Under the pieces are notes generated by a model, which saw nothing but the letters and a program-made list of their open reading frames with translations, searched no databases and had not been told where the DNA came from. 64,000 nucleotides of DNA, taken from the IMG/VR virus record IMGVR_UViG_3300028886_000028, positions 160,001 to 224,000 of that record, one strand, 5' to 3'. Made by a program: the position numbers and the translations under genes. How positions within the stretch are numbered: position 1 is the first letter of the stretch; each line of letters begins with the position of its first letter. The stretch comes from a virus (lineage: Duplodnaviria > Caudoviricetes). Positions 3 to 58,165 of this stretch are shown here, in pieces.

Positions 3-929
3 TTCGATGTAACAGATACAAGTAGTCCAACAAAGTTATTAAATAACACAAATCATTTCAGTTCAATTGAGATAGATGACGTTGTTCAACCATCAGTTGT
101 CAGCGCATATACGTTCGATACACTTGGTGAACATACAGTTAAATATACATTGGTAGACCCAACAATTATAGGCAGTAAAGCTTTCAGTGGCTGTACTAGT
201 CTTACAAGTATAGATATACCTGATGGTGTTACAAGTATTGGTACTGAGGCTTTCAGAGGTTGTAGTAGCCTTAGTAGTTGTACAATAGGTGATGGTGTAA
301 TAAGTATTGGTAATAGTGCTTTCAATGGCTGTACTAGTCTTACAAGTATAGATATACCTGATAGTGTAACAACTATTGGTAATAATGTTTTCTATAATTG
401 TAGTGGCCTTACAAGTTGTACAATAGGTAGTGGTGTAACAAGTATCGGTAGTAATGCTTTCCAAGATTGTACTAGTCTTACAAATATAGTTATACCTGAT
501 AGTGTTACAAGTATTGGTAATAGCGCTTTCAATGGATGTAGAAGTCTTACAAGTTGTACAATAGGTAGTGGCGTGACAAATATTGGTGATAGTGCTTTCA
601 GAAATTGTAGAAGTCTTACAAGCTGTACAATAGGTGATGGCGTTACAAGTATTGGTAATAATGCTTTCCAAAATTGTACTAGCCTTGCAAGTTGTACAAT
701 AGGCAGTGGTGTTACAAGTATTGGTAATAATGCTTTCCAAGATTGTACTAGTCTTAGTAACATAACATGCAATGCAATGACAGCGCCTACAATAGATAAT
801 AATACATTCCAAAATGTTAAAACTAATGGAACATTATACGTTCCGCAAGGTAGTACTAGCTATGATGTATGGATGGGAACAGGAAACTATTACTTAGGAA
901 AGTATAGTTGGACAAAAGTTGAACAATAA
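3..929 (+). CDS. BspA-type leucine-rich repeat (LRR_5) protein, 5' truncated by window edge
   Basis: Frame is open from position 3 (FDVTDTSSPT..., matching 56960..58165). Contains tandem 23-aa xLTSIxIPDSVTSIGxxAFxxC repeats and a C-terminal cap (GTLYVP...WTKVEQ). Confidence 0.9.
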   Translation, partial: FDVTDTSSPTKLLNNTNHFSSIEIDDVVQPSVVSAYTFDTLGEHTVKYTLVDPTIIGSKAFSGCTSLTSIDIPDGVTSIGTEAFRGCSSLSSCTIGDGVISIGNSAFNGCTSLTSIDIPDSVTTIGNNVFYNCSGLTSCTIGSGVTSIGSNAFQDCTSLTNIVIPDSVTSIGNSAFNGCRSLTSCTIGSGVTNIGDSAFRNCRSLTSCTIGDGVTSIGNNAFQNCTSLASCTIGSGVTSIGNNAFQDCTSLSNITCNAMTAPTIDNNTFQNVKTNGTLYVPQGSTSYDVWMGTGNYYLGKYSWTKVEQ

Positions 930-3431: not shown

Positions 3432-4703
3432 ATGGGAATTTATTTAAAAAAATTTAGCGCTCATACTGATTATGAAGCAGCTAAAAGTAGTTTAATACTA
3501 CCAAATGTATCAATATGCTCTGATGTGCTTGATGAGGTGCATTATAATCCATATGTAGGTATAAGTAGTGTTACACTTAACAAGAGTGAATTAAGTCTTA
3601 ATAAGGGTGAAACTGAGACGTTGGTAGCCACTGTATTGCCAGCTAATGCAAGTAACAAGGGTGTTACTTGGTCATCAAGTGATGATAGCGTTGCCACTGT
3701 GAGCAGTAACGGTCTTGTGACTGCTATTGGTGGTGGTAATACCAATATTACTGTAACAACTGTTGATGGTGGCTTTACAGCGCAATGTTCATTAAACATC
3801 ATTGTAAATGTAGCAGGTGTTACACTCAATAAGAGCACACTTAGTCTTAGCAAAGGTGCAACTGAAACATTAGTTGCAACAGTATCACCAAGCGATGCTG
3901 GTAATAAGAACGTTATTTGGTCATCGAGTAATGATAGTGTTGCTACTGTTAATAGCAATGGTCTTGTAACGGCTATTGGCGATAGTGGTAGTGCTATTAT
4001 TACAGTTACAACAGTTGATGGTGGTTTTACTGCACAGTGTGGCTGTAGTGTAATTGACACTAATGGGCATGATTATGTTGAGATTGGTGGACTTAAGTGG
4101 GCAACAAAGAATGTTGGTGCAAGCAAAATTACTGATAATGGTTTATATTTCCAATGGGGTGATACCCAAGGCTACACTGTTGACCAAGTAGGTAGTGGAA
4201 GCGGCAAGAAAGCCTTTGATTGGCCAGATTATAAGTACATAAGTGGAGTAGGAACATCAAGTTCGGCATTTACAAAATACAATTCAACTGATGGTTTAAC
4301 AACTCTTGAGGCTGTTGATGATGCTGCAAGTGTTAATATGGGTGGTTCATGGCGTATGCCAACATCTGAAGAATTACAAGCTCTTGGTGCTGCTAGTGAT
4401 TTTATCACGTCTGGCGGAACAAAAATAACAACCAGTGATAAGTTAACAACCTTAAATGGTGTCAAGGGTATCTTAGTTGCAGATAAAAACGACTATTCCA
4501 AGAGATTATTCTTTCCTACTGCGGGCTACTGCGCCAACACAACTGTGAACGATAGAGGAAGTAAAGGCTTCTGCCGGACGAGTTCGCTTTACAGTGGCGA
4601 CGTGAGTAAAGCCTACACCTTGCTCTTATTCAGCTACGGAGTGTACTGGGGTAGCGGCGGCCCTCGCAGCAACGGCTATCCGGTTCGTGGCGTGATTGCT
4701 TAA
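3432..4703 (+). CDS. Anchor-peptide + 2x Big_2 Ig-like + C-type lectin (Fib_succ_major/DUF1566-like) protein; probable DGR target
   Basis: Conserved N-terminal peptide; two VTWSSSDDSVATV..G.VTA Ig repeats; KWATKNVGA...YFQWG...WRMPT..E...G.PVR lectin motifs; GC-rich 3' end. Confidence 0.85.
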   Translation: MGIYLKKFSAHTDYEAAKSSLILPNVSICSDVLDEVHYNPYVGISSVTLNKSELSLNKGETETLVATVLPANASNKGVTWSSSDDSVATVSSNGLVTAIGGGNTNITVTTVDGGFTAQCSLNIIVNVAGVTLNKSTLSLSKGATETLVATVSPSDAGNKNVIWSSSNDSVATVNSNGLVTAIGDSGSAIITVTTVDGGFTAQCGCSVIDTNGHDYVEIGGLKWATKNVGASKITDNGLYFQWGDTQGYTVDQVGSGSGKKAFDWPDYKYISGVGTSSSAFTKYNSTDGLTTLEAVDDAASVNMGGSWRMPTSEELQALGAASDFITSGGTKITTSDKLTTLNGVKGILVADKNDYSKRLFFPTAGYCANTTVNDRGSKGFCRTSSLYSGDVSKAYTLLLFSYGVYWGSGGPRSNGYPVRGVIA

Positions 4704-4821: not shown

Positions 4822-4841
4822 CCAACAGGTATATAGTTCCC
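4822..4841 (-). repeat. ~20-bp cassette-end site, reverse orientation (CCAACAGGTATATAGTTCCC)
   Basis: Matches the sites at 14879, 21479, 30843 and 31722. Confidence 0.8.
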
Positions 4842-5850: not shown

Positions 5851-7332
5851 ATGGGAAGTTATATAAAAATATTTAATACTCATGAAGAGTATCTTGAATG
5901 GGTAGAAACTTCATTGGTAGAGCCTAACATTTCATTTTGTAAAGATAAGCCTCGCCAAGTACATTATCATCCATTGTCTGGATGTACAGAAGGTGTTGTG
6001 TATAAAATTACAAGCACGCCATCTTACCCTTCTATAATTGAAAACGATGTGACATCATTTGATATTAGCTTTGATTATAGAAAGGCTGATATAGATGAAC
6101 ATTGCAGAGAAACAGATATTGTAAACAGCGCTGATACTGTAACAGTTAATTGTGGCGCAAATACAGGCTCAACAGATAGAGTTGTATCAGGAGTCGTAAC
6201 ATGGAATAGAAACGATATTGAATATAACGTTGTTCAAAAAGGAGTTTGTGTTGATTCCACTGTATATGAACTTGTAGGAAATCCATCTTATCCGGCAACT
6301 ATTCAATATGACGTAACATCATTTGATATTAATTTCAATTATAAGAAAACTGTAACAACAAGTGATTGTCAAAAAACTGTTACAAACAGTGCAGATACTG
6401 TAACTGTTAATTGCGGAGCGAATACAGGTTCATCAGATAGAACAGTGTCAGGTACTGTAACATGGAATGGCATAAACATTGAGTATAGTGTTACGCAGAA
6501 AAAAGGTTGTACTGTTTCAACTGTATATGAGCTTGTAGGAAATCCATCTTATCCAGCAACAATTGAATACGATACAACATCATTTGTTATTAACTTTAAT
6601 TACAAAAAAACTGATACAAATGAGTATTGCCAAGAAACTGTTACAAACAGTGCAGATACTGTAACTGTTAATTGTGGCGCGAATACAGGTTCGTCAGATA
6701 GAACAGTATCCGGTACCGTAACATGGAATGGAATTAATATTGAATATAACGTTACACAAAGTGGCTATTCTGACCCGTATGGAGGCTATGAGTATGTTGA
6801 CTTAGGTCTTCCTAGTGGATTAAAATGGGCTAAATATAATATTGGTGCTTCCAATGAAAGCGAAGTAGGAATGTATTTTTCATACGGAAATATAGTCGGG
6901 CATTATAATTGTGACGGGTATGATTTTTCATCCGCTAGTTACAGTACAACAAACGGTTATAGATTAAGCGGAAATATACCTCAAAATTCACAGTATGATG
7001 CGGCTATTGCTATTTGGGGTAATGGATGGAGAATGCCGACGCGAGACGAATTTCAAGAATTAATAAATAATACAACTTGTTCTTATGATTCAAATACATA
7101 TACATTCACTATAACAAGTAAAATAAATGGTAAATCAATTAAAATAAAAGCTTCAGGATATTGGGATAATACTTCTTGCCCTAGCCTTACGACAACATCA
7201 ATATATATCATGTCTTCCACATTATCAGGAAAATATGGAGTATCATTGAATGCCTCTTCTTATGGCGATTATAAAATGCACGTATATGGTAATAGATTTA
7301 CAGGCTTACCAATTCGTCCTGTACATAGTTAA
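5851..7332 (+). CDS. Anchor-peptide + 3 tandem ~87-aa beta modules + C-type lectin domain
   Basis: Divergent N-terminal peptide; three PSYP..I....TSF...DTVTVNCGANTG repeats; YVDLGLPSGLKWA...WRMPTRDE...PIRPV. Confidence 0.8.
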   Translation: MGSYIKIFNTHEEYLEWVETSLVEPNISFCKDKPRQVHYHPLSGCTEGVVYKITSTPSYPSIIENDVTSFDISFDYRKADIDEHCRETDIVNSADTVTVNCGANTGSTDRVVSGVVTWNRNDIEYNVVQKGVCVDSTVYELVGNPSYPATIQYDVTSFDINFNYKKTVTTSDCQKTVTNSADTVTVNCGANTGSSDRTVSGTVTWNGINIEYSVTQKKGCTVSTVYELVGNPSYPATIEYDTTSFVINFNYKKTDTNEYCQETVTNSADTVTVNCGANTGSSDRTVSGTVTWNGINIEYNVTQSGYSDPYGGYEYVDLGLPSGLKWAKYNIGASNESEVGMYFSYGNIVGHYNCDGYDFSSASYSTTNGYRLSGNIPQNSQYDAAIAIWGNGWRMPTRDEFQELINNTTCSYDSNTYTFTITSKINGKSIKIKASGYWDNTSCPSLTTTSIYIMSSTLSGKYGVSLNASSYGDYKMHVYGNRFTGLPIRPVHS

Positions 7333-14897: not shown

Positions 14898-14990
14898 ACA
14901 ATAAACTATAGAATGCAGTCAGAAATGGCTGCATTTTTTGTTGCCTTAGATATTTATATAAAAAAATTAGATTTTAAAAAAGTAATAGCT

Positions 14991-16028
14991 ATGAAAAATT
15001 TTAAATTATTTAGTGCTCATACTGATTATGAGGCAGCTCAGAGCAGTTTAATACTACCAAATGTATCATTTTGTCTTGATACGCCAAATGAGGTACATTA
15101 TAATCCATTTGAGTGGTGTGAAGAAACTAGTATATATGAAGTAATAGGTAGTCCTTCATATCCATCTACAATAAATGGTGATATAACATCATTTGATATT
15201 GCAATTAGTTATAGAAGGACTGATACAAGTAGCTCTTGTACTGAAACTGTGACTGAAGGCACAGATACTGTTACCATTGAATGTGGTCAGAATCCAAGCA
15301 CAAGTGATACAAGGACTGTAAGTGGTACAGTTGATTATCATGGTAACGAGATTGAATATAGTGTTACTCAAAATAAGCTTAGTAATAATTCAGCAATTAC
15401 ATATTACGCAGAAAGTAAATTACTTGAGACAACTGATAGTAAATCAGATGGATTACGTACAAATGCGTTTAATGTATCAATTAAAAGCCATACATTCAGT
15501 AACGGTATAGGAACAATAACATTTAGTGGAACTTTAGGAACTATAGGTAGTTATGCTTTCCAAGGTTGTACTGGTCTTACAAGTATAGTTATACCAGATA
15601 GTGTAACAACTATTGGTTATGATGCTTTCAATAGATGTAGAAGCCTTACAAGTATAAATATACCTGATAGCGTTACAAGTATTGGTGACAATGCTTTCTA
15701 TAAATGTAGCGGCCTTACGAATATAGTTATACCTGATAGTGTTACAAGTATTGGTAGTAATGCTTTCGATAGTTGTTCTAATATGACAAGCTGTACAATA
15801 GGTAGTGGCGTAACAAGTATTAGTAATTATGCTTTCTATAATTGTAGTGGTCTTACAAGTATAACATGTAATGCAATGACAGCACCAACAGTAACATCAA
15901 ATTCATTTTACGGCGTCAAAAACGGTGGTACATTATATGTTCCTATAGGTAGCAGCGGTTATGACACTTGGATGGGAACAGGAAGTTATTACTTAGGAAG
16001 TATTAATTGGACTAAGGTAGAACAATAA
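14991..16028 (+). CDS. Anchor-peptide + one PSYP module + BspA LRR protein
   Basis: MKNFKLFSAHTDYEAAQSSLILPNVSFC...VHYNPF; module shared with 5851; about 5 LRRs; WTKVEQ cap. Confidence 0.88.
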   Translation: MKNFKLFSAHTDYEAAQSSLILPNVSFCLDTPNEVHYNPFEWCEETSIYEVIGSPSYPSTINGDITSFDIAISYRRTDTSSSCTETVTEGTDTVTIECGQNPSTSDTRTVSGTVDYHGNEIEYSVTQNKLSNNSAITYYAESKLLETTDSKSDGLRTNAFNVSIKSHTFSNGIGTITFSGTLGTIGSYAFQGCTGLTSIVIPDSVTTIGYDAFNRCRSLTSINIPDSVTSIGDNAFYKCSGLTNIVIPDSVTSIGSNAFDSCSNMTSCTIGSGVTSISNYAFYNCSGLTSITCNAMTAPTVTSNSFYGVKNGGTLYVPIGSSGYDTWMGTGSYYLGSINWTKVEQ

Positions 16029-20635: not shown

Positions 20636-21373
20636 ATGAAATATTTAAAATTATTTAATGACCATGCTGAATATGAAGTTGCTAAGAATGGTTTAATACT
20701 ACCTAATGTATCAAATTGTGTTAATACACAAAATGAAGTGCATTATAATCCTTATGACCCATATGCAGGCCATGAGTATGTTGAGATTGGCGGCTTGAAA
20801 TGGGCAACAATGAACATTGGTGCTTCGCAGCCAAGTGATTATGGTTTGTATTTCCAATGGGGTGACACACAAGGCTACACTGCTGAACAAGTAGGTAGTG
20901 GTGAAGGACAGAAATACTTTGGTTGGGAAGACTATAAATACGGTAATGGTACAAGTTCGCCAGGTGCTACAGGAATGACCAAGTATAACTCTACTGATGG
21001 CTTAACAACACTTGAGGCTGTTGATGATGCTGCTGTTGCTAATTGGGGTGGCAGTTGGCGTATGCCAACAACTGATGAATTCCAAGCTCTTGGTGCTGCC
21101 GTAAACACTGCATGGACTCAAGTTAACAACGTGTATGGTATGTTATGTACAGATAAGGAAGATAGTTCCAAGACATTATTCTTCCCTGCTGCTGGCAGCT
21201 GTCTCAATGGCAGTGTCAGATTCGTAGGCAATGACGGTGGCTATTGGTCTAGTTCTCTTGACACTGATGGTGGGCAGGACGCCTACGACTTGGACTTTTT
21301 CAGTAGCTATGCTGACTGGGGTAGCAGCGGCAGCCGCTGCTGCGGCTTCGCAGTTCGTCCTGTGGTTGGTTGA
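20636..21373 (+). CDS. Anchor-peptide + C-type lectin protein; probable DGR target
   Basis: Conserved N-terminal peptide; KWATMNIGA, YFQWG, WRMPT, FFPAAG, YWSSS, G.AVRPV; GC- and NNC-rich 3' region. Confidence 0.88.
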   Translation: MKYLKLFNDHAEYEVAKNGLILPNVSNCVNTQNEVHYNPYDPYAGHEYVEIGGLKWATMNIGASQPSDYGLYFQWGDTQGYTAEQVGSGEGQKYFGWEDYKYGNGTSSPGATGMTKYNSTDGLTTLEAVDDAAVANWGGSWRMPTTDEFQALGAAVNTAWTQVNNVYGMLCTDKEDSSKTLFFPAAGSCLNGSVRFVGNDGGYWSSSLDTDGGQDAYDLDFFSSYADWGSSGSRCCGFAVRPVVG

Positions 21374-21500
21374 GAATTCATCATCACCAATAAACCAAAA
21401 TAAACTTGATTGCCACAAGCGTCAGCCCAAGGCAATCAAGTTTTCTATTTATGCCACCTTGTTATGCATATACTAATGCCAACAGATATATAGTTTCCAA
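21350..21500 (+). repeat. Conserved 3' end + hairpin + cassette end, nearly identical to 30841-30990 (reverse strand)
   Basis: About 150 bp near-identity, including a 13-bp stem (AAACTTGATTGCC 21402-21414 / GGCAATCAAGTTT 21431-21443) and the end site at 21479-21498. Confidence 0.92.
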
Positions 21501-21591
21501 ACTTAAAGCGAACTTTTCATGTTAAATTCTTTATTTATTAGTATTTTTTTTTATTTTTTATAAAAATAATAATTCAGAAAGCAAAAAGTAA

Positions 21592-22065
21592 ATGTTACAG
21601 GATGAAATAATGAAATTGGGAGATTACTTTAGAGGAATTGAATATTTCAATGATGCCCTAATTGTAAAAGTTAATTTCCCACCACGATGGCAAGTATATC
21701 CTTCAATAGATGGCAATATAAAGCCCGCCAGTGGAGAAAAAATAGCAGGTGAGTACTTTTATTATGGGGATATGAATAAAGTGTCTCTTGATGAAATTTT
21801 TGAACTGATTAAGGAAACAATTGATGCAAATAAGGATGCAGAATCTAAAATTCAATTGCTCAATGATAAAGTTAATGAACTTAAAGAGTTGTTTAAAAGA
21901 GAGCCATTAGATAGGCTTTTAAAATTGAATTTCATAATAGAAGAAGCGAAAGAAAAAAAACCAAAAAGAAAATACAATAAAAAAAAGAAAGTTGAAGATG
22001 TTAAAGTTGAATCAGATACTATTTTAACAGAACCGGTAATTATTGAAAATGAAAAGGAAGATTAA
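21592..22065 (+). CDS. Hypothetical protein
   Basis: ORF track. Confidence 0.7.
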   Translation: MLQDEIMKLGDYFRGIEYFNDALIVKVNFPPRWQVYPSIDGNIKPASGEKIAGEYFYYGDMNKVSLDEIFELIKETIDANKDAESKIQLLNDKVNELKELFKREPLDRLLKLNFIIEEAKEKKPKRKYNKKKKVEDVKVESDTILTEPVIIENEKED

Positions 22066-30438: not shown

Positions 30439-30825
30439 ATGGTACATGTTATTAATATAAAAACTGATGATAAGACAATGGATGAAGGATATTTCTACGT
30501 AGGCCGTAGCAAATATAATAATTCTCCACTTGGAAACCCCTTTACATGTAAAGGAAAGCGAACAAGTTTAGCAAAACTATCATTTCCAACAGTTGAACAA
30601 GCAATAGAAGCCTACGAAATGTATTTTGATGCCATGTACGGTAAAGATGAAGATTTCACGAAGGCTTTTGATGAAATATACGAATATTATAAAACTGGAA
30701 AAGATGTATATCTTGGATGTTTTTGTGCACCGGGTAAATGCCATGCATCTATCATTGCTAAAAAATTGCAACAGAAATTAATAAAGGAAAAAATGGAAGA
30801 AAGAAAAAAGGAGAAGCTCAAATAA
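30439..30825 (+). CDS. DUF4326-like protein
   Basis: YVGR...SPLGNPF...LGCFCAP..CHA. Confidence 0.8.
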   Translation: MVHVINIKTDDKTMDEGYFYVGRSKYNNSPLGNPFTCKGKRTSLAKLSFPTVEQAIEAYEMYFDAMYGKDEDFTKAFDEIYEYYKTGKDVYLGCFCAPGKCHASIIAKKLQQKLIKEKMEERKKEKLK

Positions 30826-30842
30826 GCCTCTCCTTTTTATTT

Positions 30843-31741
30843 GGGAACTATATATCTGTTGGCATTAGTATATGCATAATAAGGTAGTATAAATAGAAAA
30901 CTTGATTGCCTTGGGCTGACGCTTGTGGCAATCAAGTTTATTTTGGTTTATTGGCGATGATGAATTCTCAACCTACCACAGGGCGAACCGAGAAGCCGTA
31001 GTAACGGTAGTCCTTGAACACGCCCTTGGCACCATTGAGAAAGAAGAAGCTGTAAGCGTTACCACTACCATTAGGAGAAGAACCCCAATAGTAACCGCTA
31101 TTGCCTACATCGCTCTGGCTACCATTGTACCAGCGGCCAACAGCAGGAAGAAATAAAACAGCCCCATTGGTGGCTGTGAATGTACCACCATTTATTCCAC
31201 TACCTTTGTAGTTTGTTACCCACTGATAAGTAGTATTAGCTGTCAATTCTTGCATTTGTACACTCGTTGGCATATGCCAAGAGCCACCCCACACTTGCAC
31301 TGCTGTATCTACAGAAGAATCTAATGGGTATTCTGTTCCACTATAGTTGCTATCGCCACTTGTTGCTGCATATTGAGCAGCGCCCTTACCGTATTGATAG
31401 TAATTACCATAATCCGTTTCTGATGAAGCACCCACGTTCATTGTAGCCCAAAGTGTACCACTTGGTAGACCAAGGTCAACATACTCATGGCCTGCATATG
31501 GGTCAACATAAGGATTATAATGCACTTCATTAGGCGTATCATTACATGTTGATACATTTGGTAGTATCAAATTACTCTGTGCTGATTCGTAATCAGTATG
31601 AGCATTAAATTTTTTTAAGTATTTCATAATTCTATTTTGTTTTTACTATAAATATCAGTTATATGTATAAATGAGCAATCCTTTGGTTGATTTTCTCATT
31701 ATTATAAACTAATAGATATTACCAATAGGTATATAATTCCG
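30843..31741. mobile_element. Putative non-autonomous gene cassette (IR-promoter-lectin gene-hairpin-IR)
   Basis: Imperfect terminal inverted repeats at 30843-30862 and 31722-31741; flanks TTTTATTT / TTTTGTTT; no transposase inside. Confidence 0.6.
30968..31627 (-). CDS. Anchor-peptide + C-type lectin protein; probable DGR target
   Basis: MKYLKKFNAHTDYESAQSNLILPNVS...; YVDLGLPSGTLWATMNVGA; FLPA.G...YW.SS...GFSVRPV. Confidence 0.88.
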   Translation of the reverse strand: MKYLKKFNAHTDYESAQSNLILPNVSTCNDTPNEVHYNPYVDPYAGHEYVDLGLPSGTLWATMNVGASSETDYGNYYQYGKGAAQYAATSGDSNYSGTEYPLDSSVDTAVQVWGGSWHMPTSVQMQELTANTTYQWVTNYKGSGINGGTFTATNGAVLFLPAVGRWYNGSQSDVGNSGYYWGSSPNGSGNAYSFFFLNGAKGVFKDYRYYGFSVRPVVG

Positions 31742-32066
31742 TTTTGTTTTGCTTAAAGTAAAATGGATTATCTTTTAATGATTCTATAATATCCATTTTT
31801 TCATCACAGATGCTTTTAAAAGCCTCTGTATCGTTTTCAAACAACTCAAACCATTCTCCTATAATGTTGGATGAATTAAAGTGATTATGAAGCATCTTTT
31901 CAAGTTTGAAAGGATGGCTTGTTTCATAAAAGTCTTTTATATATAATTCATAAGAACTTCCAGTTTGAAGCTGTTTCAATCTTTTATTAATATCTTTCGA
32001 CCTAGTAGAACCTATTTTAAACCTACCAGGATTTTCTTTTTCACCTATCAAATATACATATCCCAT
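31719..32066 (-). CDS. GIY-YIG superfamily (T5orf172/MUG113-like) protein
   Basis: GYVYLI...FKIG.T...KRLKQLQTG...E..LH......GEWF. Confidence 0.85.
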   Translation of the reverse strand: MGYVYLIGEKENPGRFKIGSTRSKDINKRLKQLQTGSSYELYIKDFYETSHPFKLEKMLHNHFNSSNIIGEWFELFENDTEAFKSICDEKMDIIESLKDNPFYFKQNKTELYTYW

Positions 32067-38977: not shown

Positions 38978-41900
38978 ATGGCTAATGGAATAGGTATTGC
39001 ATATTGTGGCGGCATAATGACTTGTAGCGGTTATTCAGAGCCAAAAGCCTCAAATCTACTATTAGATAACCCAAGGCTTTATGAAGAGCCAAATAGTGCC
39101 AGTACAATAATAAATAATACAGATGCAGATGCGTTTGTATATACTTACTGTGACAGAGACAAACCTAACTCTGGTTCATGCGTGAATGATAGCCCAACAT
39201 CAAAATTGTATGTCATAAAATCATGTTGTTCCCCCAAAATGCCTTGCACATATTATGACGATGTGGATGGAATTGAATGCCCAAAAATAATTAATGATAA
39301 TACAAATATTTGGGCAAAAGAAGTAGAAGCAAGATATGATATACCTTTTGCTCATGGAGATTATGAACTATATGAATATAGCGCTGAAAAACTAAAAAAT
39401 ATGTTGGGTGTAAACACAACAAAAGTAACTTATTTTTCAGGTGATACTAGTTATGATTTAGAACAGTTTAAAGAAAACTTATGTGATAAACGTTATAATG
39501 CTATTAAAAATTACCTAGTTAGTTTGGGGGCAATGGAATATAGGATAAGACGTGATGGAGGAATATTAGAAAACAACTCGCAAGCTTATAATTATTCTAC
39601 TCATGTTATTGCTAATGTTAGTTTTTTACCATTTACTGATAATTTCTCTGGTGGTTCTGAAGCTAATTTAGATACTATTGTGAGACAGCAGTATAATGAT
39701 TTTATTCATGTTACTCCAAACATTACACAATCTGAAGATAACGAAAACACATTTTCAGAATACATCAAAACAAAACGTTTGGCTGAAATAAACAATATTT
39801 TTGGTGATATTAGCAATATTGGATTTTCTGCTAACACTAGAGGTAGTCATGCGTATCCTAAAATTTCTTTTTATGCGAAGAAATCAATATTTTCAGAATA
39901 TGATGATATGACAGGCAATAACACTACCAGGATTACAAATTATGATGCTAATGAACCTTATCATTATTTTACAAATGGTGTTGTAAGTGCTGAATTTTCA
40001 TTTATAAATGACGAAAATTCAAAATGGTATAGCAGTGGAAGAAGTGAATCATATGCTGACGTACCAAGTGCAACAACAGTTGGTATGTTTAAAGATTGCC
40101 CAACATTGGTAACTTGTGATATTCCAGGACAAATGAGATACATTAGTCCACAAACATTTATGGAATGTGGCAAGTTGTCAAGTTATACAACAAATCCTGA
40201 TACTATTGATGTAATTGATGCTGAAGCGTTTAGTGCTAGTGGCATTAAAACTGGAATTATAGGTAGATACACTGTATTGAAGAATCGAGCGTTTAGTGGA
40301 GCAACACAAATGGACACTATCTATTGGCATAATTATATCCCACTTAACAACAGCTTTAGTGGTAATGTATTTGGATATAGTGGAGAACCTAGATGTAGAT
40401 TGGATAGCGGATATACATACTTCTGGGATGATGAAGATATAGACTGGGGAAGAACTGGATATACAATACCAAAAGAAGCATTCAAAGATTGTCATGCATT
40501 AAAACATAGTAAATTCGCTAAAGGAAGTGCTCATACAGAGACAATTACATTGACAGATACGTTATATATACCAAGCGGATTTACAACTATTGGTAAAAGT
40601 GCATTTGAAAACTGTAGTGGGTTAACTGACATATATCTTAATGGAGTTAAATTTGTTAAAGAAAAGGCATTTAATAATTGTAAAAACATGAATGTACACG
40701 ATACTGAGAATGTAATTTATGTTGGAACTGATGCATTTAATAGAGGTAATAATGATTCACGTGAAGTCACAGTTTATGGTGGTGAAAATGCTTGGAAAGA
40801 ACTCGTACAAATTGACAAAAATGCATTTTATGATAAAAACATAAAAAACGGTAATCCATATCCTTCTTCTGATGCTGAAAAAATATTATCTTTGCCAAAA
40901 GTTGTAAGTATTGGGGAAAACGCATTTAGTGGGGCAACAATAGATGGATATTTAAAAATAACCAATAATGTTAGTGCTAAAACAATTTATAACGCTGCTT
41001 TTAACAGTTGTACAATATCTGATAGCACAAGTGATGGTTGGGGATTGATTATAAGTGGAGATACAACAAGATTAAATAGATATTATGTTTTCAGCGGACT
41101 TCATACAGATAAAGGCGGTGTATATTTACGTAATGTTGATATGTCAGATAACTCCAATCCTTTTGCTAATTCTGTAATAAATGGTAATGTTGATATTAGT
41201 GCTTGTACGTTAAGCTTATATGCTTTTAATCGTGCGCATATGAGTGGTTTAACACTTTATCATGAAGGAAAAGAAGTCAACGATTTTGCGTTTGCGGGAG
41301 CAGAAATGAGTGGTAATTGCAATGTTACTGCAAAAACATTTCAAACTCAATCATTTTGGAAAGCTAATATAAGTGGAGATTGTTCAATCTCAGCAAATAC
41401 AATTGGAAAGCAGGCATTCTTTTCGGCATCAGCTAGCACTTTAAATTTATATCCGATAAGTGAAAGTAATTGTATTTCTATAAGTGAATATGCCTTTCAA
41501 AATTTTGTATTAACTTCTAGTAATAGTATTAATTTGAATAAAGTTGGGACGTTTGGAAATTATGCATTTTTAGAGTCTCAAATAAGTTCAGTTATTCTAC
41601 CTTTAGGGGTAGATATAAGTGATAGTTGTTTTGAACGTTCGTCATTATCAAGTGTATCGTTTAATAATTATACAAATTGTTCATCAAACGATGGAAAGTT
41701 TGAAATTAAAGATTATGCGTTTGAACACTGTAGTAATCTTACGTCTATAAATATTCCAAGCGGTGTAACAAAAATTGGTAGTTATAGCTTCGGTGAATGT
41801 ACTAGCCTCTCAAATGTAACTTTTAATAATAATTCACAACTAACAAGTATTAGTGATGGTGCTTTTGATAGCAATACTAGTTTATTAAGTATTACACTTC

Positions 41901-42346
41901 CAAATAGCGTTACAAGTATTGGCATTAACACTTTTAATGGTTGCACTAGCCTTACAAGTATAGATATACCTAGTAGCGTATCAAGTATTGGTATTGGCGC
42001 TTTTAATGGCTGCGCTAGCCTTACAAGTATTACTTTGGGTAATAATGTTACAAGTATAAATTATATTACATTCCAAAATTGTACTAGCCTTACAAGTATT
42101 ACTTTGGGTAATAATGTTTCAAGTATTCAAGTTGACGCTTTTAATGGTTGTACTAGTCTTGTAGAGATAAAGTGTTATTCACAAACAGCCCCAGAACTTG
42201 TTAACGAATCTAGTCAAAATATAAACATAGCAACTGGTGGTACAGTGCATGTCCCAAGTGGATGCGCGGCTCAATATAGATATAGGTGGTCTTATTTAAT
42301 AGATAGCACAGATTATGGTTGGAATGTGGAAGAAGATTTACAATAA
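38978..42346 (+). CDS. Large BspA-type LRR protein (putative receptor-binding/tail protein)
   Basis: Degenerate and canonical I...AF..C..L repeats; Cys-rich N-terminus. Confidence 0.8.
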   Translation: MANGIGIAYCGGIMTCSGYSEPKASNLLLDNPRLYEEPNSASTIINNTDADAFVYTYCDRDKPNSGSCVNDSPTSKLYVIKSCCSPKMPCTYYDDVDGIECPKIINDNTNIWAKEVEARYDIPFAHGDYELYEYSAEKLKNMLGVNTTKVTYFSGDTSYDLEQFKENLCDKRYNAIKNYLVSLGAMEYRIRRDGGILENNSQAYNYSTHVIANVSFLPFTDNFSGGSEANLDTIVRQQYNDFIHVTPNITQSEDNENTFSEYIKTKRLAEINNIFGDISNIGFSANTRGSHAYPKISFYAKKSIFSEYDDMTGNNTTRITNYDANEPYHYFTNGVVSAEFSFINDENSKWYSSGRSESYADVPSATTVGMFKDCPTLVTCDIPGQMRYISPQTFMECGKLSSYTTNPDTIDVIDAEAFSASGIKTGIIGRYTVLKNRAFSGATQMDTIYWHNYIPLNNSFSGNVFGYSGEPRCRLDSGYTYFWDDEDIDWGRTGYTIPKEAFKDCHALKHSKFAKGSAHTETITLTDTLYIPSGFTTIGKSAFENCSGLTDIYLNGVKFVKEKAFNNCKNMNVHDTENVIYVGTDAFNRGNNDSREVTVYGGENAWKELVQIDKNAFYDKNIKNGNPYPSSDAEKILSLPKVVSIGENAFSGATIDGYLKITNNVSAKTIYNAAFNSCTISDSTSDGWGLIISGDTTRLNRYYVFSGLHTDKGGVYLRNVDMSDNSNPFANSVINGNVDISACTLSLYAFNRAHMSGLTLYHEGKEVNDFAFAGAEMSGNCNVTAKTFQTQSFWKANISGDCSISANTIGKQAFFSASASTLNLYPISESNCISISEYAFQNFVLTSSNSINLNKVGTFGNYAFLESQISSVILPLGVDISDSCFERSSLSSVSFNNYTNCSSNDGKFEIKDYAFEHCSNLTSINIPSGVTKIGSYSFGECTSLSNVTFNNNSQLTSISDGAFDSNTSLLSITLPNSVTSIGINTFNGCTSLTSIDIPSSVSSIGIGAFNGCASLTSITLGNNVTSINYITFQNCTSLTSITLGNNVSSIQVDAFNGCTSLVEIKCYSQTAPELVNESSQNINIATGGTVHVPSGCAAQYRYRWSYLIDSTDYGWNVEEDLQ

Positions 42347-42372
42347 TTTTTTAGTAAAATAATATTAGCAAT

Positions 42373-44391
42373 ATGGCTTGGAAAATAGATGATACAAAAT
42401 CTAGTGGTGTTATATCTAATGTACACCCTAATAGCGGTATAATAACATATAAAAAATATGGGTTTAAAACAGAAGCAAGCTGTTGTAATCCAGATACTAG
42501 TGGCCATACGGTTGTAAGTTTAGAGCGCGGTGAAGGATTTGATGACTTTACTAATGTTAGAGAAACCATCACATATTCATATGATATTGGGCCATGTAAC
42601 AAAGATGGATTTGTTACATGGTTTAATAATTCAGGCAATACATTTGAAGTTTTAAACAATAACAATGGCTTTGATGAAAAGGATGTTGATGAGGGTAAAC
42701 TTGTTATTAAAGGTGCGCCTATAATGGCAGGTTCTGGTCAAAATCAATATTTTGATGATGAGAGGTATGAAGATTCTGGCTTCCCAAATATTATTGAGTA
42801 TCCTTATGCGTTAAGTGCTACAAGTGCTACTTGTAACCCCCCAAATTCAGGTTGTAGTAAATATTATAGTACTAGAAAATGGAGAAATGTTTCTAGTGAT
42901 GCTTTCCATAAGATAAAATATCACACAAGTGAATCAACCAGTGGCACGATAAGAACTAATACAATTACAAATAATCAGGATTTGTTGGAATTATATTTTC
43001 CGCATTTATATGATAATAAAATTAGTTCTATTAATAACAACCACATTGTTTATTCAGAATTTGAAGGTTCTAATATTCATGTAATTGAAGATGCCGCATT
43101 TGAGAATAATACTAATTTAACCGCAATTACATTTAGTGCGGTTAGAGAAATTGGTAATAGTGCATTCACCAATTGCCACAGTCTTGTTGACATAGATTGG
43201 GGACACTGCGCATGTAATAATGAGTTTGAATATCCTCTTAATTGTAGTGATGACCATAATTATGATAATAATGGCGAAGCTGTAGATATAACATCAAAAC
43301 GCACATGGAGGGAAAGGAAAATAGGAGATTATGCTTTCTATAATTGTTATAGTCTTCCGGAATTACATTTAGATAGGCTTAAATGCTTAACAGAATTGGG
43401 AGCATATTCATTTTATGATTGTCATTCTTTAAAGGTTTTAACATTTCCGACTAATAGTGGTTTTAAAACCATTAATCCTTATACTTTCTGGAATTGTTAT
43501 TCTCTTTCAGGAGCAGTGAGTTTCCCTGACAATATTGAAAAGATTGACAGTTATGCTTTTGAAAATGGATATAGCCTTAGTGGTATAAATGTAGAACATA
43601 TATCAAGGTTTGGAGAAGGAGCATTTAAGAATTGTAGTGGGGCTTCGTGGGTTAAATTATCTAATAGTTGGTCTGCTATTTCTGAAAGTTGTTTTGAAAA
43701 TTGTACTTCATTGTCAGGAGTTACATTGAGCGGTTTTTATACTGCTTCTACTAGTTACAGTGGAAATACTGTTGGAAGAAGGGCATTCGCCAATTGTACT
43801 AATCTTGCGAAAGTAAACCTTGGAGTTCGCACTAAAAACATAGAAGAAGAGGCGTTTATTAATTGCACTAATTTAAAAGTCTTTGCTGTAAGTGGCTCTA
43901 GTACTGTAATAGGAGAAAGTGCGTTTGAAAACTGTACAAGCCTTAGTTCTGTAACAAATGCTGGATATATTAAAATAGTTTCAGGAAAATCTTTTTATAA
44001 TACAGATATACATACGTTAAGTATGTCTGATGTTGAAGATATAGGAAATGAAGCATTTGAGAAGTCATCATCTTTATCAAGTGTAACTATTGGTAATAAA
44101 ATAAAAGCAATAGGTGACGAAGCATTTAAAGATTCTAGAAATTTAAAAACAGTTAAAATTGGAACAGGAATAACTTCAATTGGAACTGAAGCGTTTATGG
44201 ATTGCCCTGTTTTAAGCAGCGTTACTATTAGTAGAAATATTTCTACCACCACACCTGTTCCTTCTTTGGGTGCTGATGCTTTTAAAAATAGTACCAATAA
44301 TTTAACAATATGGGTTCCAAGAACTTATGTAAATAATTATAAAAGTAGTTGGCCTGAGTACGAAAATAACATTAGTGGAACAACAACTTAA
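42373..44391 (+). CDS. BspA-type LRR protein (putative tail protein)
   Basis: IG..AF.NC..L repeats and an I.VP....Y...W cap. Confidence 0.8.
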   Translation: MAWKIDDTKSSGVISNVHPNSGIITYKKYGFKTEASCCNPDTSGHTVVSLERGEGFDDFTNVRETITYSYDIGPCNKDGFVTWFNNSGNTFEVLNNNNGFDEKDVDEGKLVIKGAPIMAGSGQNQYFDDERYEDSGFPNIIEYPYALSATSATCNPPNSGCSKYYSTRKWRNVSSDAFHKIKYHTSESTSGTIRTNTITNNQDLLELYFPHLYDNKISSINNNHIVYSEFEGSNIHVIEDAAFENNTNLTAITFSAVREIGNSAFTNCHSLVDIDWGHCACNNEFEYPLNCSDDHNYDNNGEAVDITSKRTWRERKIGDYAFYNCYSLPELHLDRLKCLTELGAYSFYDCHSLKVLTFPTNSGFKTINPYTFWNCYSLSGAVSFPDNIEKIDSYAFENGYSLSGINVEHISRFGEGAFKNCSGASWVKLSNSWSAISESCFENCTSLSGVTLSGFYTASTSYSGNTVGRRAFANCTNLAKVNLGVRTKNIEEEAFINCTNLKVFAVSGSSTVIGESAFENCTSLSSVTNAGYIKIVSGKSFYNTDIHTLSMSDVEDIGNEAFEKSSSLSSVTIGNKIKAIGDEAFKDSRNLKTVKIGTGITSIGTEAFMDCPVLSSVTISRNISTTTPVPSLGADAFKNSTNNLTIWVPRTYVNNYKSSWPEYENNISGTTT

Positions 44392-51968: not shown

Positions 51969-53438
51969 ATGGGAAGATTTATAAGTAATTTTCAAACAAC
52001 ATCTGAATTGATAGCCTTTTCTGGCACAACAATGTTTGGCAAACCTCATGTATCATTGACAAAAGATACGTCATCAGTACATTATTTCAAAAGTGGCGTT
52101 GTTCCGCCAACTCCGCAGTATAGGTTTGTTGATGATGAAGGGTACACTTGTGAAGGATATGATAAATACACAAAGAAAAAACAGCAAGTATCATATGATA
52201 ACGGTGCAACATGGACTGATACCGGAGTTGTTTCAGCCGGTACATTAATTGAAGCAAATTCAGAAGATTGTGGATATGTTCCGCCAACGCCTACTGAAAC
52301 AAGAGTTGTATGTAAGTATAATACTAGTTCTGAAGGAGAAATTTCATTATTCTATTATTTTGAAAGCGGAAGTGGCAGCGGAAGTGGTAGTGGTTCAGGC
52401 AGTGAGCCTCCATTCACATCTATGGAAGTAGATGGCGTTGAAGTAGAGGTGACTCCTACTTACACATTTGACACAACAGGCGAGCACATTGTTAAATTTA
52501 CGCTAGCAGACCCAACAAATATTGGTACGAGTGCTTTCACTCATTGTTATAAACTTACAAGTGTAACTATGCCAGATAGTGTGACAAATATTGGTGATTA
52601 TGCTTTCTTTTGGTGTGATGGCCTTACAAGTATAGACATTCCAAGCGGCGTTACAAGTATTGGTGATTATGCTTTCTATCAATGTTATGGCCTTACAAGT
52701 TGTACAATAGGTAGCGGTGTTACAAGTATTGGTGAGAATGCTTTCTATTATTGTACTGGTCTTACAAGTATAGTTATTCCTGATAACGTAACAACTATAA
52801 GTGAGAATGCTTTCTATGAATGTCATAGTCTTACAAGTTGTACAATAGGTAGTGGCGTTACAAGTATTGGTGGTGAAGCTTTCAGAGATTGTAGTGGCCT
52901 TACAAGTATAGTTATACCTGATAGTGTTATAAGTATAGGCAATAGTGCTTTCGGATGGTGTAGTAGCATTAGTAGTTGTACAATAGGTAGTGGCGTTACA
53001 AGTATTGGTTATGACGCTTTCATTGCTTGTAGCGGCCTTACAAGTATAAACATACCTGATAGTGTGACAATTATTGATAGTAACACTTTCAACGGTTGTA
53101 GAAGTGTTACAAGTTGTACAATAGGTAGTGGCGTTACAAATATTGGTACTTATGCTTTCGCTGATTGTAGAAGCCTTACAAGTATAACATCAAATGCTGT
53201 AACTGCACCTGAAATACAAATTAACACATTCCAAGGAATTGCAGAAAATGGTACATTATATGTTCCAGAAGATAGTACTAGTTATGATACCAATTGGTTG
53301 TCAAGTGAAGAATACTATTTAGGATATTACAGTTGGAATATAGAACATACACAGCCAAGTGGCTCAGGTAGCGGCTCAGGCAGTGGCTCAGATAGTGGTA
53401 CAGACAGTGGCTCAGGCAGTGGTTCTGGAAATGGTTAA
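51969..53438 (+). CDS. Variant anchor-peptide + GS linker + BspA LRR protein
   Basis: MGRFISNFQT...PHVSL...VHYF; GSGSGS linkers; about 10 LRRs. Confidence 0.88.
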   Translation: MGRFISNFQTTSELIAFSGTTMFGKPHVSLTKDTSSVHYFKSGVVPPTPQYRFVDDEGYTCEGYDKYTKKKQQVSYDNGATWTDTGVVSAGTLIEANSEDCGYVPPTPTETRVVCKYNTSSEGEISLFYYFESGSGSGSGSGSGSEPPFTSMEVDGVEVEVTPTYTFDTTGEHIVKFTLADPTNIGTSAFTHCYKLTSVTMPDSVTNIGDYAFFWCDGLTSIDIPSGVTSIGDYAFYQCYGLTSCTIGSGVTSIGENAFYYCTGLTSIVIPDNVTTISENAFYECHSLTSCTIGSGVTSIGGEAFRDCSGLTSIVIPDSVISIGNSAFGWCSSISSCTIGSGVTSIGYDAFIACSGLTSINIPDSVTIIDSNTFNGCRSVTSCTIGSGVTNIGTYAFADCRSLTSITSNAVTAPEIQINTFQGIAENGTLYVPEDSTSYDTNWLSSEEYYLGYYSWNIEHTQPSGSGSGSGSGSDSGTDSGSGSGSGNG

Positions 53439-53515
53439 GAATAATAAATCTATAAAAAGGGGTAATCAGTTAAGATTACTCTTTTTTTATTTGTTAATAC
53501 TTTTATTTTTTGTAT

Positions 53516-55066
53516 ATGAATAATAAATTTTGCATATTAACAGTTATAAAAAATGAACATGAATACCTAGATGAGTGGATAAAATATCACCTTGATTTAG
53601 GTATTAATCATATATTCATATTTGAGGATATTGACAGTGATTCGCATAAGGAAATATGTGAAAAATATGGCGATAAAATAACATTAAATAATATTGATGT
53701 GGTTCTAGATGAACAAAATAAGAAAAAAATAAGGGAACTGAAATTATCTAAAATAAAGAATCCTCAAGAAATATATTTTCCAAAGGCTTTAACGTGGATA
53801 CAGAAAAACTATAATTATAATTGGTGTTTTGTCATAGATTGTGATGAATTTATAACACTAAAAGATAAAACACTTGAAGATATATTAGAATTATATAAAG
53901 ATTATGATGCTTTTGTTTTGCAATGGAAAATATATGGAGCAAACGGTCATATAAACAAACAAGATTATTCTGATAAAGGATTAGTGGGAATATATACAAA
54001 AGAATCTCATTATCCTGGACACCATGTATTAGAATGGACAACTAAGACTTGTTATAATGTTAAAGCGTTCAAAGAATCATATTTGAAATGTTGCCATCAG
54101 CCTACAGATGAATGTAAGTGGTGTAAAACAGACTATTCAAATGATAGAAAAAAATTAGTATTTGATAACGTTTATCTAAGGCATTATATGACAAAATCTT
54201 GGGAAGAATACATTTCCAAAAGAAAGAGGGGATATTTTATGGGATTCGCAAGAACAAGTGATTTTTTCTTTAAAGTAAATCCAGATATGCTTTCTATGAG
54301 GGGTGAATTATTAAATCAAATTAAAAGTGAAACTTTAGTTGTATTACCATATAAACAAAGTAGTTCTCAAGGTAATGAGATTAGATTAAGTTTAAATGGA
54401 TGGAGAAAGTTCTGTAAATTCGAATATCATTTCATTGTTATTGGAGAATTTGATGAAAAATTAAAAAAAGACTTTCCTTGGGTTGAATTCATACATTGTC
54501 CAAGTAAAGAAAAGAAAAATGGACAGTATAATCCACATCTTGATATTCAGAATAAGTTTAAGATAATATCAAGAATGTATTCTCAAATGTATGATGGCTT
54601 TATTTACATAACTGATGACGAATATGCAGTAAAACCATTTGATTTGAGTGATATTAAAGCCACGTATTATCATTCATCAAGTTTTACTGGGTGTGAAAAA
54701 TGCCCAACATCATTCTGGAGGTATGATAAATGGAAAACAAGGCAATTATTGGATAAATACAATTTGCCGCATATAAATTACACAACGCATTATCCTTGTT
54801 ACTTTGAATTTAAAAAATTTGATGAAATACGTAAAAAGTTCAATATGCTTGAAGAAAGCTATGTGTTTGATGATGTGTATTTCAACTATTTCAAGCATGA
54901 AGAACCAATATTGGACAGTGAAATAAGACTAGGTATATGGAGCAATGACATATTCAAGAATGATTTCAAGAAAGCAGTTGAAAATCCAAATATTAAATTT
55001 ATGTGCAATAGTGTTGAAGGATGGAGCAAGGAATTAGAAAAAGATTTGGAAATTATAGTAAATTAA
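53516..55066 (+). CDS. Two-domain glycosyltransferase (GT-A, family 2/92-like)
   Basis: KNEHEYLDEWIKYHLDLG, FVIDCDEF, HYMTKSWEE; second domain with YITDD. Confidence 0.8.
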   Translation: MNNKFCILTVIKNEHEYLDEWIKYHLDLGINHIFIFEDIDSDSHKEICEKYGDKITLNNIDVVLDEQNKKKIRELKLSKIKNPQEIYFPKALTWIQKNYNYNWCFVIDCDEFITLKDKTLEDILELYKDYDAFVLQWKIYGANGHINKQDYSDKGLVGIYTKESHYPGHHVLEWTTKTCYNVKAFKESYLKCCHQPTDECKWCKTDYSNDRKKLVFDNVYLRHYMTKSWEEYISKRKRGYFMGFARTSDFFFKVNPDMLSMRGELLNQIKSETLVVLPYKQSSSQGNEIRLSLNGWRKFCKFEYHFIVIGEFDEKLKKDFPWVEFIHCPSKEKKNGQYNPHLDIQNKFKIISRMYSQMYDGFIYITDDEYAVKPFDLSDIKATYYHSSSFTGCEKCPTSFWRYDKWKTRQLLDKYNLPHINYTTHYPCYFEFKKFDEIRKKFNMLEESYVFDDVYFNYFKHEEPILDSEIRLGIWSNDIFKNDFKKAVENPNIKFMCNSVEGWSKELEKDLEIIVN

Positions 55067-55119
55067 AGATATTTATATAATAGAAAAATAACAAAAAAAT
55101 TAAAAATTGTTTAATAATA

Positions 55120-56931: not shown

Positions 56932-56959
56932 ATAAGCAATAAGAATTAAGAAAAAAATT

Positions 56960-58165
56960 ATGGCAAAATATTTAAGATTATTTGATGAACATACTGATTA
57001 TGAAGCAGCTGAGAGTAGCTTAGTATTACCGAACGTATCATTTTGTCTTGATACGCCTAATGATGTACATTATAAACCATATACTCCTCCAGCGTTAGTT
57101 GTTAAGTTTGATGTAACAGATACAAGTAGCCCAACAACAATTGCGAACAAAACAAGCGGATTTAATTCAATTGAGATAGATGGCGTTGTTCAACCATCAG
57201 TTGTTACTGAATATACATTTCCCACCACAGGCGAGCATACAGTTAAATATACATTAACAGACGAAACTATTATTGGAAATAGTGCTTTTACTGAATGCTA
57301 TAAAATTACAAGTATAGTTATACCTGATAGCGTAAAAACTATTGGCTACTATGCTTTTAGTAGTTGTAGCAGACTTACAAGTTGTACAATAGGAAGTGGA
57401 GTTACAAATATTGGTACTTGTGCTTTCAATCAATGTAGAAATCTTACAAGTATAGATATTCCTGATAGTATTACAAGTATTGGTACTTATGCTTTCCAAT
57501 ATTGTAGAAGTCTTACAAGTGTAAATATAGGTAGTGGAGTTATAAATATTGGCAATTTTGCTTTCGCTAATTGTAGCGGCCTTACAAGTATAGTTATCCC
57601 TGATAATGTAACAAGTATTGGAAGTGGCATGTGTAGCGGTTGTACAAACCTAACAAGTTGTACTATAGGTAGTGGTGTTACAAGTATTGGCAAAAGTGCT
57701 TTCAGAAATTGTAGTGGCATTACAAGTATAGTTATCCCTGATAGTGTTACAAGTATTGGAAATAACACTTTTACTTCTTGCTATAGCCTTACAAGTTGTA
57801 CAATAGGTAGTGGCGTTACAAGTATTAATAGCCAAACATTTGCTTATTGCAGTGGCCTTACAAGTATAAATATACCTGATAGCGTAACAAGAATTGAGAT
57901 ACAAGCTTTCGATGATTGTGATGCCCTTGCAAGCGTTACGATAGGTAGTGGCGTTACATATATTGGAGATGCATCTTTTGGGCGTTGTGATGGGCTACTT
58001 ACAATAATATCAAAAGCAACAGATGCGCCAACAATATTCAATAGCTTTTTATATGTTAGAAAAGGTGGCACATTATATGTTCCGGTAGGAAGTAGAGATA
58101 GTTACAATAATAAATGGGGTAGTGATTTACTAAGTAGTTACGAATGGACGTTAGAAGAACAATAA
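56960..58165 (+). CDS. Anchor-peptide + BspA LRR protein
   Basis: MAKYLRLFDEHTDYEAAESSLVLPNVSFCLDTPNDVHYKPY; about 11 LRRs. Confidence 0.9.
   Translation: MAKYLRLFDEHTDYEAAESSLVLPNVSFCLDTPNDVHYKPYTPPALVVKFDVTDTSSPTTIANKTSGFNSIEIDGVVQPSVVTEYTFPTTGEHTVKYTLTDETIIGNSAFTECYKITSIVIPDSVKTIGYYAFSSCSRLTSCTIGSGVTNIGTCAFNQCRNLTSIDIPDSITSIGTYAFQYCRSLTSVNIGSGVINIGNFAFANCSGLTSIVIPDNVTSIGSGMCSGCTNLTSCTIGSGVTSIGKSAFRNCSGITSIVIPDSVTSIGNNTFTSCYSLTSCTIGSGVTSINSQTFAYCSGLTSINIPDSVTRIEIQAFDDCDALASVTIGSGVTYIGDASFGRCDGLLTIISKATDAPTIFNSFLYVRKGGTLYVPVGSRDSYNNKWGSDLLSSYEWTLEEQ

Follow-up and report, generated by a model that had tools for sequence, protein, structure and literature searches.

DGRs are thought to act within their own genome, and those carried by phages to act on nearby targets. 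In the BPP-1 system, the module downstream of the variable region (VR) has been dissected: it is the structure of the hairpin stem that matters and not its sequence, the sequence of the loop does matter, and the IMH together with the hairpin suffices to turn a foreign gene into a target (Guo et al., 2011; PMC3240598). The published consensus for such DGR hairpins is a GC-rich stem of 7–10 bp capped by a GRNA tetraloop (PMC3240598). Non-adjacent or remote targets, as in Treponema denticola and others, comprise VR genes that lie far from the reverse transcriptase (RT), several to a DGR and of one fold, which reside in the same genome as that DGR and match its template repeat (TR); for phage-linked DGRs, the survey that describes them expects no remote targets (Wu et al., 2018; PMC5758913). 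Large metagenome surveys were unable to detect VRs that do not lie beside an RT (PMC8144416), and would therefore have missed orphan targets.

The locus described here lies in a window of 64,000 nucleotides, bases 160001–224000 of a 401,138-bp virus record with a GC content of 31%, and the sequencing runs that contain this window are bovine and sheep gut metagenomes. The genome (G000) is closed, its final 148 nt being a 98.6% copy of its opening 148 nt. An N-terminal peptide of ~40 residues is common to 13 of its genes, whose payloads are BspA-type LRRs or lectin domains, one lectin being preceded by two Ig domains. Many BspA-type LRR genes of the window (3–929, 14913–16028, 38978–44391, and 51969–58165) are built from 69-nt units in which a conserved framework carries variable codons, and several of them bear the family N-terminal peptide. 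Populations were compared through the contigs of the runs, and parts of gene A without long contig cover (X3, X4, X7, and X9) were not counted as absence. The lectin genes of concern are the following:

Gene A, 20636..21373, plus strand: 245 aa, from the ORF list; the ~40-aa N-terminal peptide, a lectin body, and a VR-type tail
VR-type tail of gene A, 21179..21370, plus strand: codons 182–245, FFPAAG...AVRPVVG
Gene B, 30968..31627, minus strand: 219 aa; N-terminal peptide as in gene A, a lectin body unlike that of A, and, at ~30971–31156, a VR-type tail
Gene C, 3432..4703, plus strand: two Big_2 domains and a lectin, with a third VR-type tail at ~4511–4703

Profile searches recognize these lectins faintly: gene A matches Pfam Lcl_C at 5.6e-6, this and all other Lcl_C matches of the lectin genes fall below the cut-off, and the TIGR02145 and NCBIfam profiles match none of A, B, or C. 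Their tails are conspicuous by composition. In all three genes the sequence switches abruptly to a GC fraction of 0.5–0.67 and an A fraction of 0.13–0.20, with many NNC codons; the tail of A, at 0.50–0.58 and 0.13–0.18, respectively, sits inside a 31% GC genome. A fourth lectin paralog (5851–7332) does not have such a switch. The three tails, which end at 4703, 21373, and 30968, are unlike one another in length and at scaffold positions, as the first-pass annotation of this DNA had stated. Several A-type genes from related loci carry an early in-frame stop within the N-terminal peptide, after codon 19 in L056 and L059, after codon 28 in L061 and L078, and after codon 9 in L082; homology to A persists past the stop, and a pseudogene, a split gene, or recoding are possible.

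Genes A and B, on opposite strands and distant from each other, end in the same block of DNA, whose parts are laid out as follows:

Shared block, arm at gene A, 21334..21508, plus strand: from the repeat search, BLASTN, and alignment
Shared block, arm at gene B, 30833..31007, minus strand: includes the hairpin at 30898–30939
IMH-like VR end GGCTTCGCAGTTCGTCCTGTGGTTGGTTGA and GAATTCATC spacer, 21344..21401, plus strand: assigned on the basis of the L247 VR end and of relatives
Nested hairpin, 21402..21443, plus strand: 13-bp AT-rich stem, 4 × 4 internal loop, 2-bp GC helix, and 4-nt loop, with the apical element ACAAGCGTCAGCCCAA
IS-like cassette end at gene A, 21444..21498, plus strand: TCTATTTATGCCACCTT...TGCCAACAGATATATAGTTTCC, with a terminal 20-nt repeat at 21479–21498

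The repeat search returns the two arms as inverted copies of 175 nt that are 91% complementary, and BLASTN aligns 168 nt of them at 92.9%. When each is read in gene sense and aligned globally, similarity sets in ~40 nt before the stop codons, holds at 96.1% over the 128 nt that follow them, and ends 3–4 nt past the 20-nt motif CCAACAGATATATAGTTYCC (21479–21498 and 30843–30862). Upstream of the block, the lectin parts of A and B are only 38% identical. The annotation's central observation, that two lectin genes with clearly different bodies share a VR end, a hairpin, and some 130 bp of downstream sequence, is thus confirmed. The order of elements is the same in both genes, namely ...GTGGTWGGTTGA, GAATTCATC, a spacer, and a hairpin topped by ACAAGCGTCAGCCCAA, and GAATTCATC also follows the stop codon in many A- and B-type relatives. 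The whole block has only two copies in the 401-kb genome. It is composite, consisting of a proximal DGR target-site module and a distal IS-like cassette end; the distal part, TTATGCCACCTT ... CCAACAGATATATAGTTYCC (~55 nt), forms the right-hand terminus of an IS-like passenger cassette that has no transposase. An invertible segment of the Mu G type was considered for the inverted arms and rejected, as inversion between them would leave both coding sequences unchanged. Over window positions 21236–21669, summed contig depth reaches 950 in X9 and 89–590 in X7, with flanking bins mostly far lower; this jump, which covers the block and the start of the next gene, suggests that the block is multi-copy in the X7 and X9 communities.

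The most elaborate element of the proximal half is the hairpin, formed by the arms AAACTTGATTGCC and GGCAATCAAGTTT separated by 16 nt at both 21402–21443 and 30898–30939. Folded as DNA, it has a free energy of −14.3 kcal/mol (z = −5.7), a stability reached by none of 200 shuffled sequences. Its apical element is conserved over 14 loci while at least five unrelated stem sequences keep their pairing, and six stem pairs show compensatory change, giving a covariation score reached by none of 500 shuffles. The hairpin is under selection. Within the genome, its apical element is found behind A and B and neither behind the LRR paralogs nor behind gene C, after which come a different terminator hairpin and then the cassette-end sequence again, its 20-nt repeat lying at 4822–4841. 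A T-rich run follows the hairpin. The exact hairpin sequence has no match in IMG/VR, no Rfam family matches the block, and a simple terminator scan does not call the hairpin, its loop being above the limit of the scan. Two variations on the theme are seen among related loci. In L085 (~1008, minus strand) and L092 (~5799, minus strand) the 16-nt apical element is flipped relative to the gene on the same or a similar stem, and it looks as if the loop had inverted between the stem arms. In L019, L076, L079, L085, L089, L123, L069, and L103, an extra insert of ~50 nt separates the stop codon from AATTCATC and holds a 7-bp hairpin with a 4-nt loop (ACACAGC TAAC GCTGTGT), nearer to the classical DGR form.

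What ties this module to DGRs is a verified relative. The metagenomic locus L247 encodes a lectin target, a 183-aa accessory gene, a TR, and a 381-aa RT; with L248 it adjoins purD and a VTT-domain gene, a bacterial-type context, and 19 of the 24 VR/TR mismatches in L247/L248 fall at TR adenines. Residues 40–245 of gene A are 60% identical to the L247 target over 211 residues of the lectin domain. The homology between VR and TR in L247 starts at FFPAAG, where the tail of A begins, and stops at the junction GTGGTTGGTT/GA. Downstream of the VR lie GAATTCATC, then a spacer rich in A and C, then a long hairpin with ACAAGCATCAGCACAA at its top, and both GAATTCATC and the hairpin are found after the VR only, with none after the TR. 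The check proposed with the original observation, whether the hairpin is absent after the template, could thus be run on L247, where the hairpin is indeed absent there. The putative link of A and B to DGR function rests on this one verified locus family.

Compared with BPP-1, the A/B module is similar in placement and in its pattern of constraint. It sits at the 3′ end of a C-terminal VR in a lectin protein of receptor-binding type; the hairpin comes 28 nt after the VR; pairing is kept as stem sequence changes and the loop is conserved; and in the relative L247 the module is found after the VR but is missing after the TR. Unlike the BPP-1 hairpin, that of A and B has an AT-rich stem of at least 13 bp, a nested top of 16 nt, and no GRNA tetraloop, and unlike the BPP-1 genome, G000 has no RT, Avd, or TR; a homing role at A and B is putative. 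Phage lectin DGRs of the IMG/VR records L151–L165 and of L055 resemble A and B in other respects, with VRs that start in FFPxxG and end in GF[AS]VRxV, A-only mismatches, and a long nested hairpin. In contrast to A and B, these have TR and RT within ~1–2 kb of the VR, and their hairpin tops, of GC-rich stems and 4–5-nt loops, are unlike the A/B top. Long hairpins with covarying stems and conserved loops also follow the VRs of the verified rumen-phage DGRs L090 and G012, and the hairpins in other verified DGRs of related lectins differ from the A/B type. By homology to L247 and by covariation, A and B would each possess an IMH with a downstream hairpin, one that does not fit the published consensus, and a role of this hairpin in retrohoming is plausible. 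The proposal that the block is a DGR homing signal therefore survives for its proximal part, where the VR end, GAATTCATC, and the hairpin match L247; it fails for the distal ~55 nt, which are transposon-like, and the hairpin departs from the published form.

The tails themselves bear the mark of such a system when relatives are compared. Genes A and B each have thousands of relatives, which fall into small clusters at 68%–82% identity. Among 79 relatives of A, the body is ~90% identical and the tail 56%, with 30 hypervariable tail positions at which 94% of residues are NNC-encodable; among 100 relatives of B, the body is near-invariant, and 25 hypervariable tail positions are 91% NNC-encodable, set in a scaffold unlike that of A. 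The pattern is resolved further when nine metagenomic A-type genes are aligned by codon. In these, 27 codons of the tail vary in their first two positions, and position 3 is a C in 66% of cases, compared with 16% in the body; the 33 scaffold codons of the tail show a synonymous divergence of 0.075 versus 0.20 in the body. Set against the inferred template, the independent VR L020 has differences at 24 inferred A positions and at none of the other 132, a test of A-only mismatch that rests on an inferred and not an observed template. Two synonymous adenines in the nine tails (in GTA, and in GCA in 8/9) are invariant or nearly so, which is unexpected if every template A is mutated. On these alignments, the footprint is the signature left when a single template is copied again and again under adenine mutagenesis. 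The tails of A and B are DGR-type VRs, as had been suggested, by virtue of discrete hypervariable codons and of scaffolds conserved even at synonymous sites, the variation being that among relatives and not within one population. The further deduction that more than one template is needed also stands: the difference between the A-type scaffold and the B-type one implies two templates.

Neither template resides in this genome, and neither does the machinery to copy it. A search with PF00078 (RVT_1) finds no RT in the whole 401-kb record, with positive controls, and a profile of three DGR RTs likewise finds none in G000, while the same search detects RTs in five other loci; RT searches succeed in the relatives G008, G012, L012, L055, and L090. 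A tblastn search of G000 with the Avd and accessory proteins of G012 returns no homolog. BLASTN of genes A and B against the genome yields no template, nor does a scan of both strands for A-only mismatches to A, B, and C, whose best non-self matches have 4–11 non-A mismatches per 60 nt and are all A-rich low-complexity tracts. A second relative of closed size, the 412-kb G003, also has no RT. Beyond the genome, A-only scans of 17 loci reveal no template, and neither does a BLASTN comparison of ~1.5 Mb of related loci with the inferred one; an exact 30-mer of the inferred template is absent from IMG/VR and from the GTDB species genomes; a scaffold-only pattern retrieves five VRs and no template from IMG/VR; and peptide scans that include the short ORFs of the protein collection find no template on the A, B, or C scaffold. 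The peptide scans with the translated inferred template do return many real templates of sister lectin types, each beside an RT. Those of the IMG/VR phages L151–L165 show 16–25 mismatches, all or nearly all A-to-N, and some short spurious ORFs in the protein collection are templates, one of which leads to L247/L248. G000 has no resident DGR. The reading of the shared ends as the signal of a resident multi-target DGR is therefore not borne out in this circularly closed genome, which has no RT, accessory gene, or template repeat, and the template repeats whose recovery had been proposed as a check have no cognate in the genome, related loci, IMG/VR, GTDB, or short ORFs. Like the known remote targets, the VR genes here are several, of one fold, and far from any RT; unlike those, which share a genome with their DGR and match its TR, they occupy a replicon without a DGR (PMC5758913).

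Loss of a DGR at an assembly break was considered and rejected, as G000 closes on itself and its syntenic region is without both of the cassettes of G012. In the 412-kb G012, two complete DGRs with A-only mismatches lie at the record ends. These (L138/L139) stand side by side with core mismatches that are all A-to-N; one targets a protein of 1095 aa and the other a protein with the family N-terminus, and the VR2 frame in the record contains stops. For the A-like lectin of G012 itself, no template was found either. The lectin of L009/G008 was examined as a target of the adjoining DGR and dismissed, the target being a neighboring 616-aa gene. In L090 (732–5654), a verified DGR comprising target, TR, Avd, and RT is directly succeeded by two lectin genes, the first of B type and the second of A type; the tails of both are unlike the template of the adjoining DGR, and the A-type gene has a hairpin with the conserved top (5709).

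The distal half of the block belongs to a different kind of element, best delimited around gene B:

Non-autonomous IS-like cassette with gene B, 30840..31746, minus strand: 907 nt, with terminal inverted repeats and the flanks TTTTATTT / TTTTGTTT, a 7/8 direct repeat

The genome has eight copies of the 20-nt motif CCAACAGRTATATAGTTCCC, each of them next to a gene of the 13-member family. The motif brackets B in inverted orientation (30843–30862 and 31722–31741, the repeats matching at 16/20) and also brackets an LRR gene at genome positions 325565–327557; a related subterminal sequence, TTATGCCACCTTAT..., lies behind LRR genes (window position 929, genome position 325695) and behind lectin gene C. 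The flanks TTTTATTT and TTTTGTTT look like an 8-bp duplication. In contigs from X3 and X4, position 30839 is joined directly to 31747, an empty site from which the 907-nt cassette is absent, and these contigs otherwise match G000 with four differences in 575 nt. Cassette B is mobile. It is like non-autonomous IS passenger cassettes in its imperfect ~20-nt terminal repeats, 8-bp near-duplication, exact empty site, and want of an internal transposase, and an IS1595-type transposase (DDE_Tnp_IS1595) is absent from G000. It is unlike them in what it carries, namely a lectin gene of virion type equipped with a DGR target module. The gap in which it sits (30826–31718), between a DUF4326 gene (30439–30825) and a T5orf172/MUG113 gene (31719–32066), holds an insert of ~3.1 kb with an A-like lectin in L111 (2261–5352) and is empty in X3 and X4; this gap may be an insertion hot spot.

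Gene A begins 12 nt after the preceding gene, and no terminal repeat is found upstream of it within four mismatches. In distant relatives, similarity to G000 is lost at exactly 20625 and regained at 21591, and A-type genes occupy different neighborhoods in related phages, which together argue that A occupies a replaceable slot too. The earlier claim that these genes ride on mobile DNA is thereby upheld, B lying in a repeat-bounded cassette with an empty site in near-identical phages. Its corollary, that the cassettes bring their own homing signal and so couple mobility with hypermutation, agrees with the anatomy of the block; it is the multi-target DGR that does not fit G000, which has no DGR.

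Taken together, we lean toward the explanation that A and B are orphan DGR targets with a composite block, written elsewhere or by a helper and moved on cassettes. The proximal block, comprising the last ~30 nt of the VR, GAATTCATC, and the nested hairpin, would act in cis as the target-site module of a DGR target of the lectin type, and adenine-mutagenic retrohoming, from two distinct template repeats, would have written the tails of A and B. Since the phage has no retroelement, this would have happened elsewhere or through a helper; most likely, variants are made at the home of the cognate DGR, be it a bacterium or another mobile element, and cassette transposition and recombination then bring them into the phage and move them around inside it. 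The 96% identity of A and B after the stop codons would reflect recent exchange between the copies or a common cassette source. Where the tails are written, and whether this is still ongoing, are matters of inference: writing elsewhere followed by transfer is favored because no recorded variant joins the body of A to another tail, and because near-identical phages differ by change of the whole gene or by absence of the cassette.

A less likely account grants the block a present function, whereby a DGR of the host or of a co-resident element, equipped with two templates, acts in trans during infection to rewrite A and B. Both genes retain an intact IMH-like end, spacer, and hairpin at 96% identity, and both types exist in thousands of variants; sufficiency of the IMH and hairpin for a heterologous gene in BPP-1 (PMC3240598) supplies a precedent. 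A DGR with a sister-type template does reside beside purD in a bacterial-type context, and in L090 a DGR RT adjoins B- and A-type lectins whose tails are unlike its template. Against this, no collection searched contains a cognate template, and none of the proteins searched combines the N-terminus and body of A with another tail; the nearest variant of A is 82% identical overall, with the body at 93% and the N-terminus at 68%. At the A locus of X3/X4, the body differs as well and B is absent, which looks like cassette turnover instead of rewriting in place, and remote targets are not expected for phage-linked DGRs (PMC5758913). We hold it improbable that DGR target modules, each comprising a VR, an IMH, and a new type of nested hairpin, pass as IS-like cassettes among giant rumen phages and bacteria and are rewritten in trans from another replicon, which would be a more novel case than writing elsewhere. 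The hairpin could also be just a terminator inherited with the gene. On that account, which we regard as similarly doubtful, the block is nothing more than a transposable cassette's 3′ end, the tails are fossils of past DGR action, and the likeness to L247 stems from common descent of the entire 3′ region and implies no part in retrohoming. The T-rich run and the position of the hairpin are as expected of a terminator, LRR paralogs have a terminator hairpin with the same cassette end, the hairpin lies outside the published DGR form, and the flipped apical element of L085 and L092 is odd for a strand-specific signal. Terminator loops, however, are normally not conserved, and the 16-nt apical element of this hairpin is unchanged on five unrelated stems in genes only 38%–60% identical, is confined in this genome to A and B to the exclusion of the LRR paralogs and C, and follows the VR but not the TR in a verified DGR; moreover, the simple terminator scan makes no call. 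A resident but unrecognizable diversifier, with a very divergent RT or a heavily diverged template, would account for the strength of the DGR-type footprint, and that strength is all that speaks for it. We give it hardly any credence, as two independent RT searches are negative in G000 and positive in G008, G012, L012, L055, and L090, the A-only scan of both strands meets only A-rich low-complexity DNA, and G003 has no RT either.

The preferred reading, of orphan targets written elsewhere or by a helper, thus describes a complete giant-phage genome with two or three apparently intact target modules and no retroelement, in which one module resides in a cassette present or absent among near-identical phages. 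Should the tails be written elsewhere and moved afterward, phages would obtain new binding specificities from hypermutation and horizontal transfer working as a single system. The conserved nested hairpin offers a second, testable form of DGR target signal, unlike the GC-rich GRNA hairpin. If writing instead takes place in trans, an entire class of targets escapes any DGR survey that depends on an RT next to the VR, and a phage without a retroelement would draw on a community-level hypermutation service; this, if true, would be the first case of cross-replicon DGR targeting coupled to transposition.
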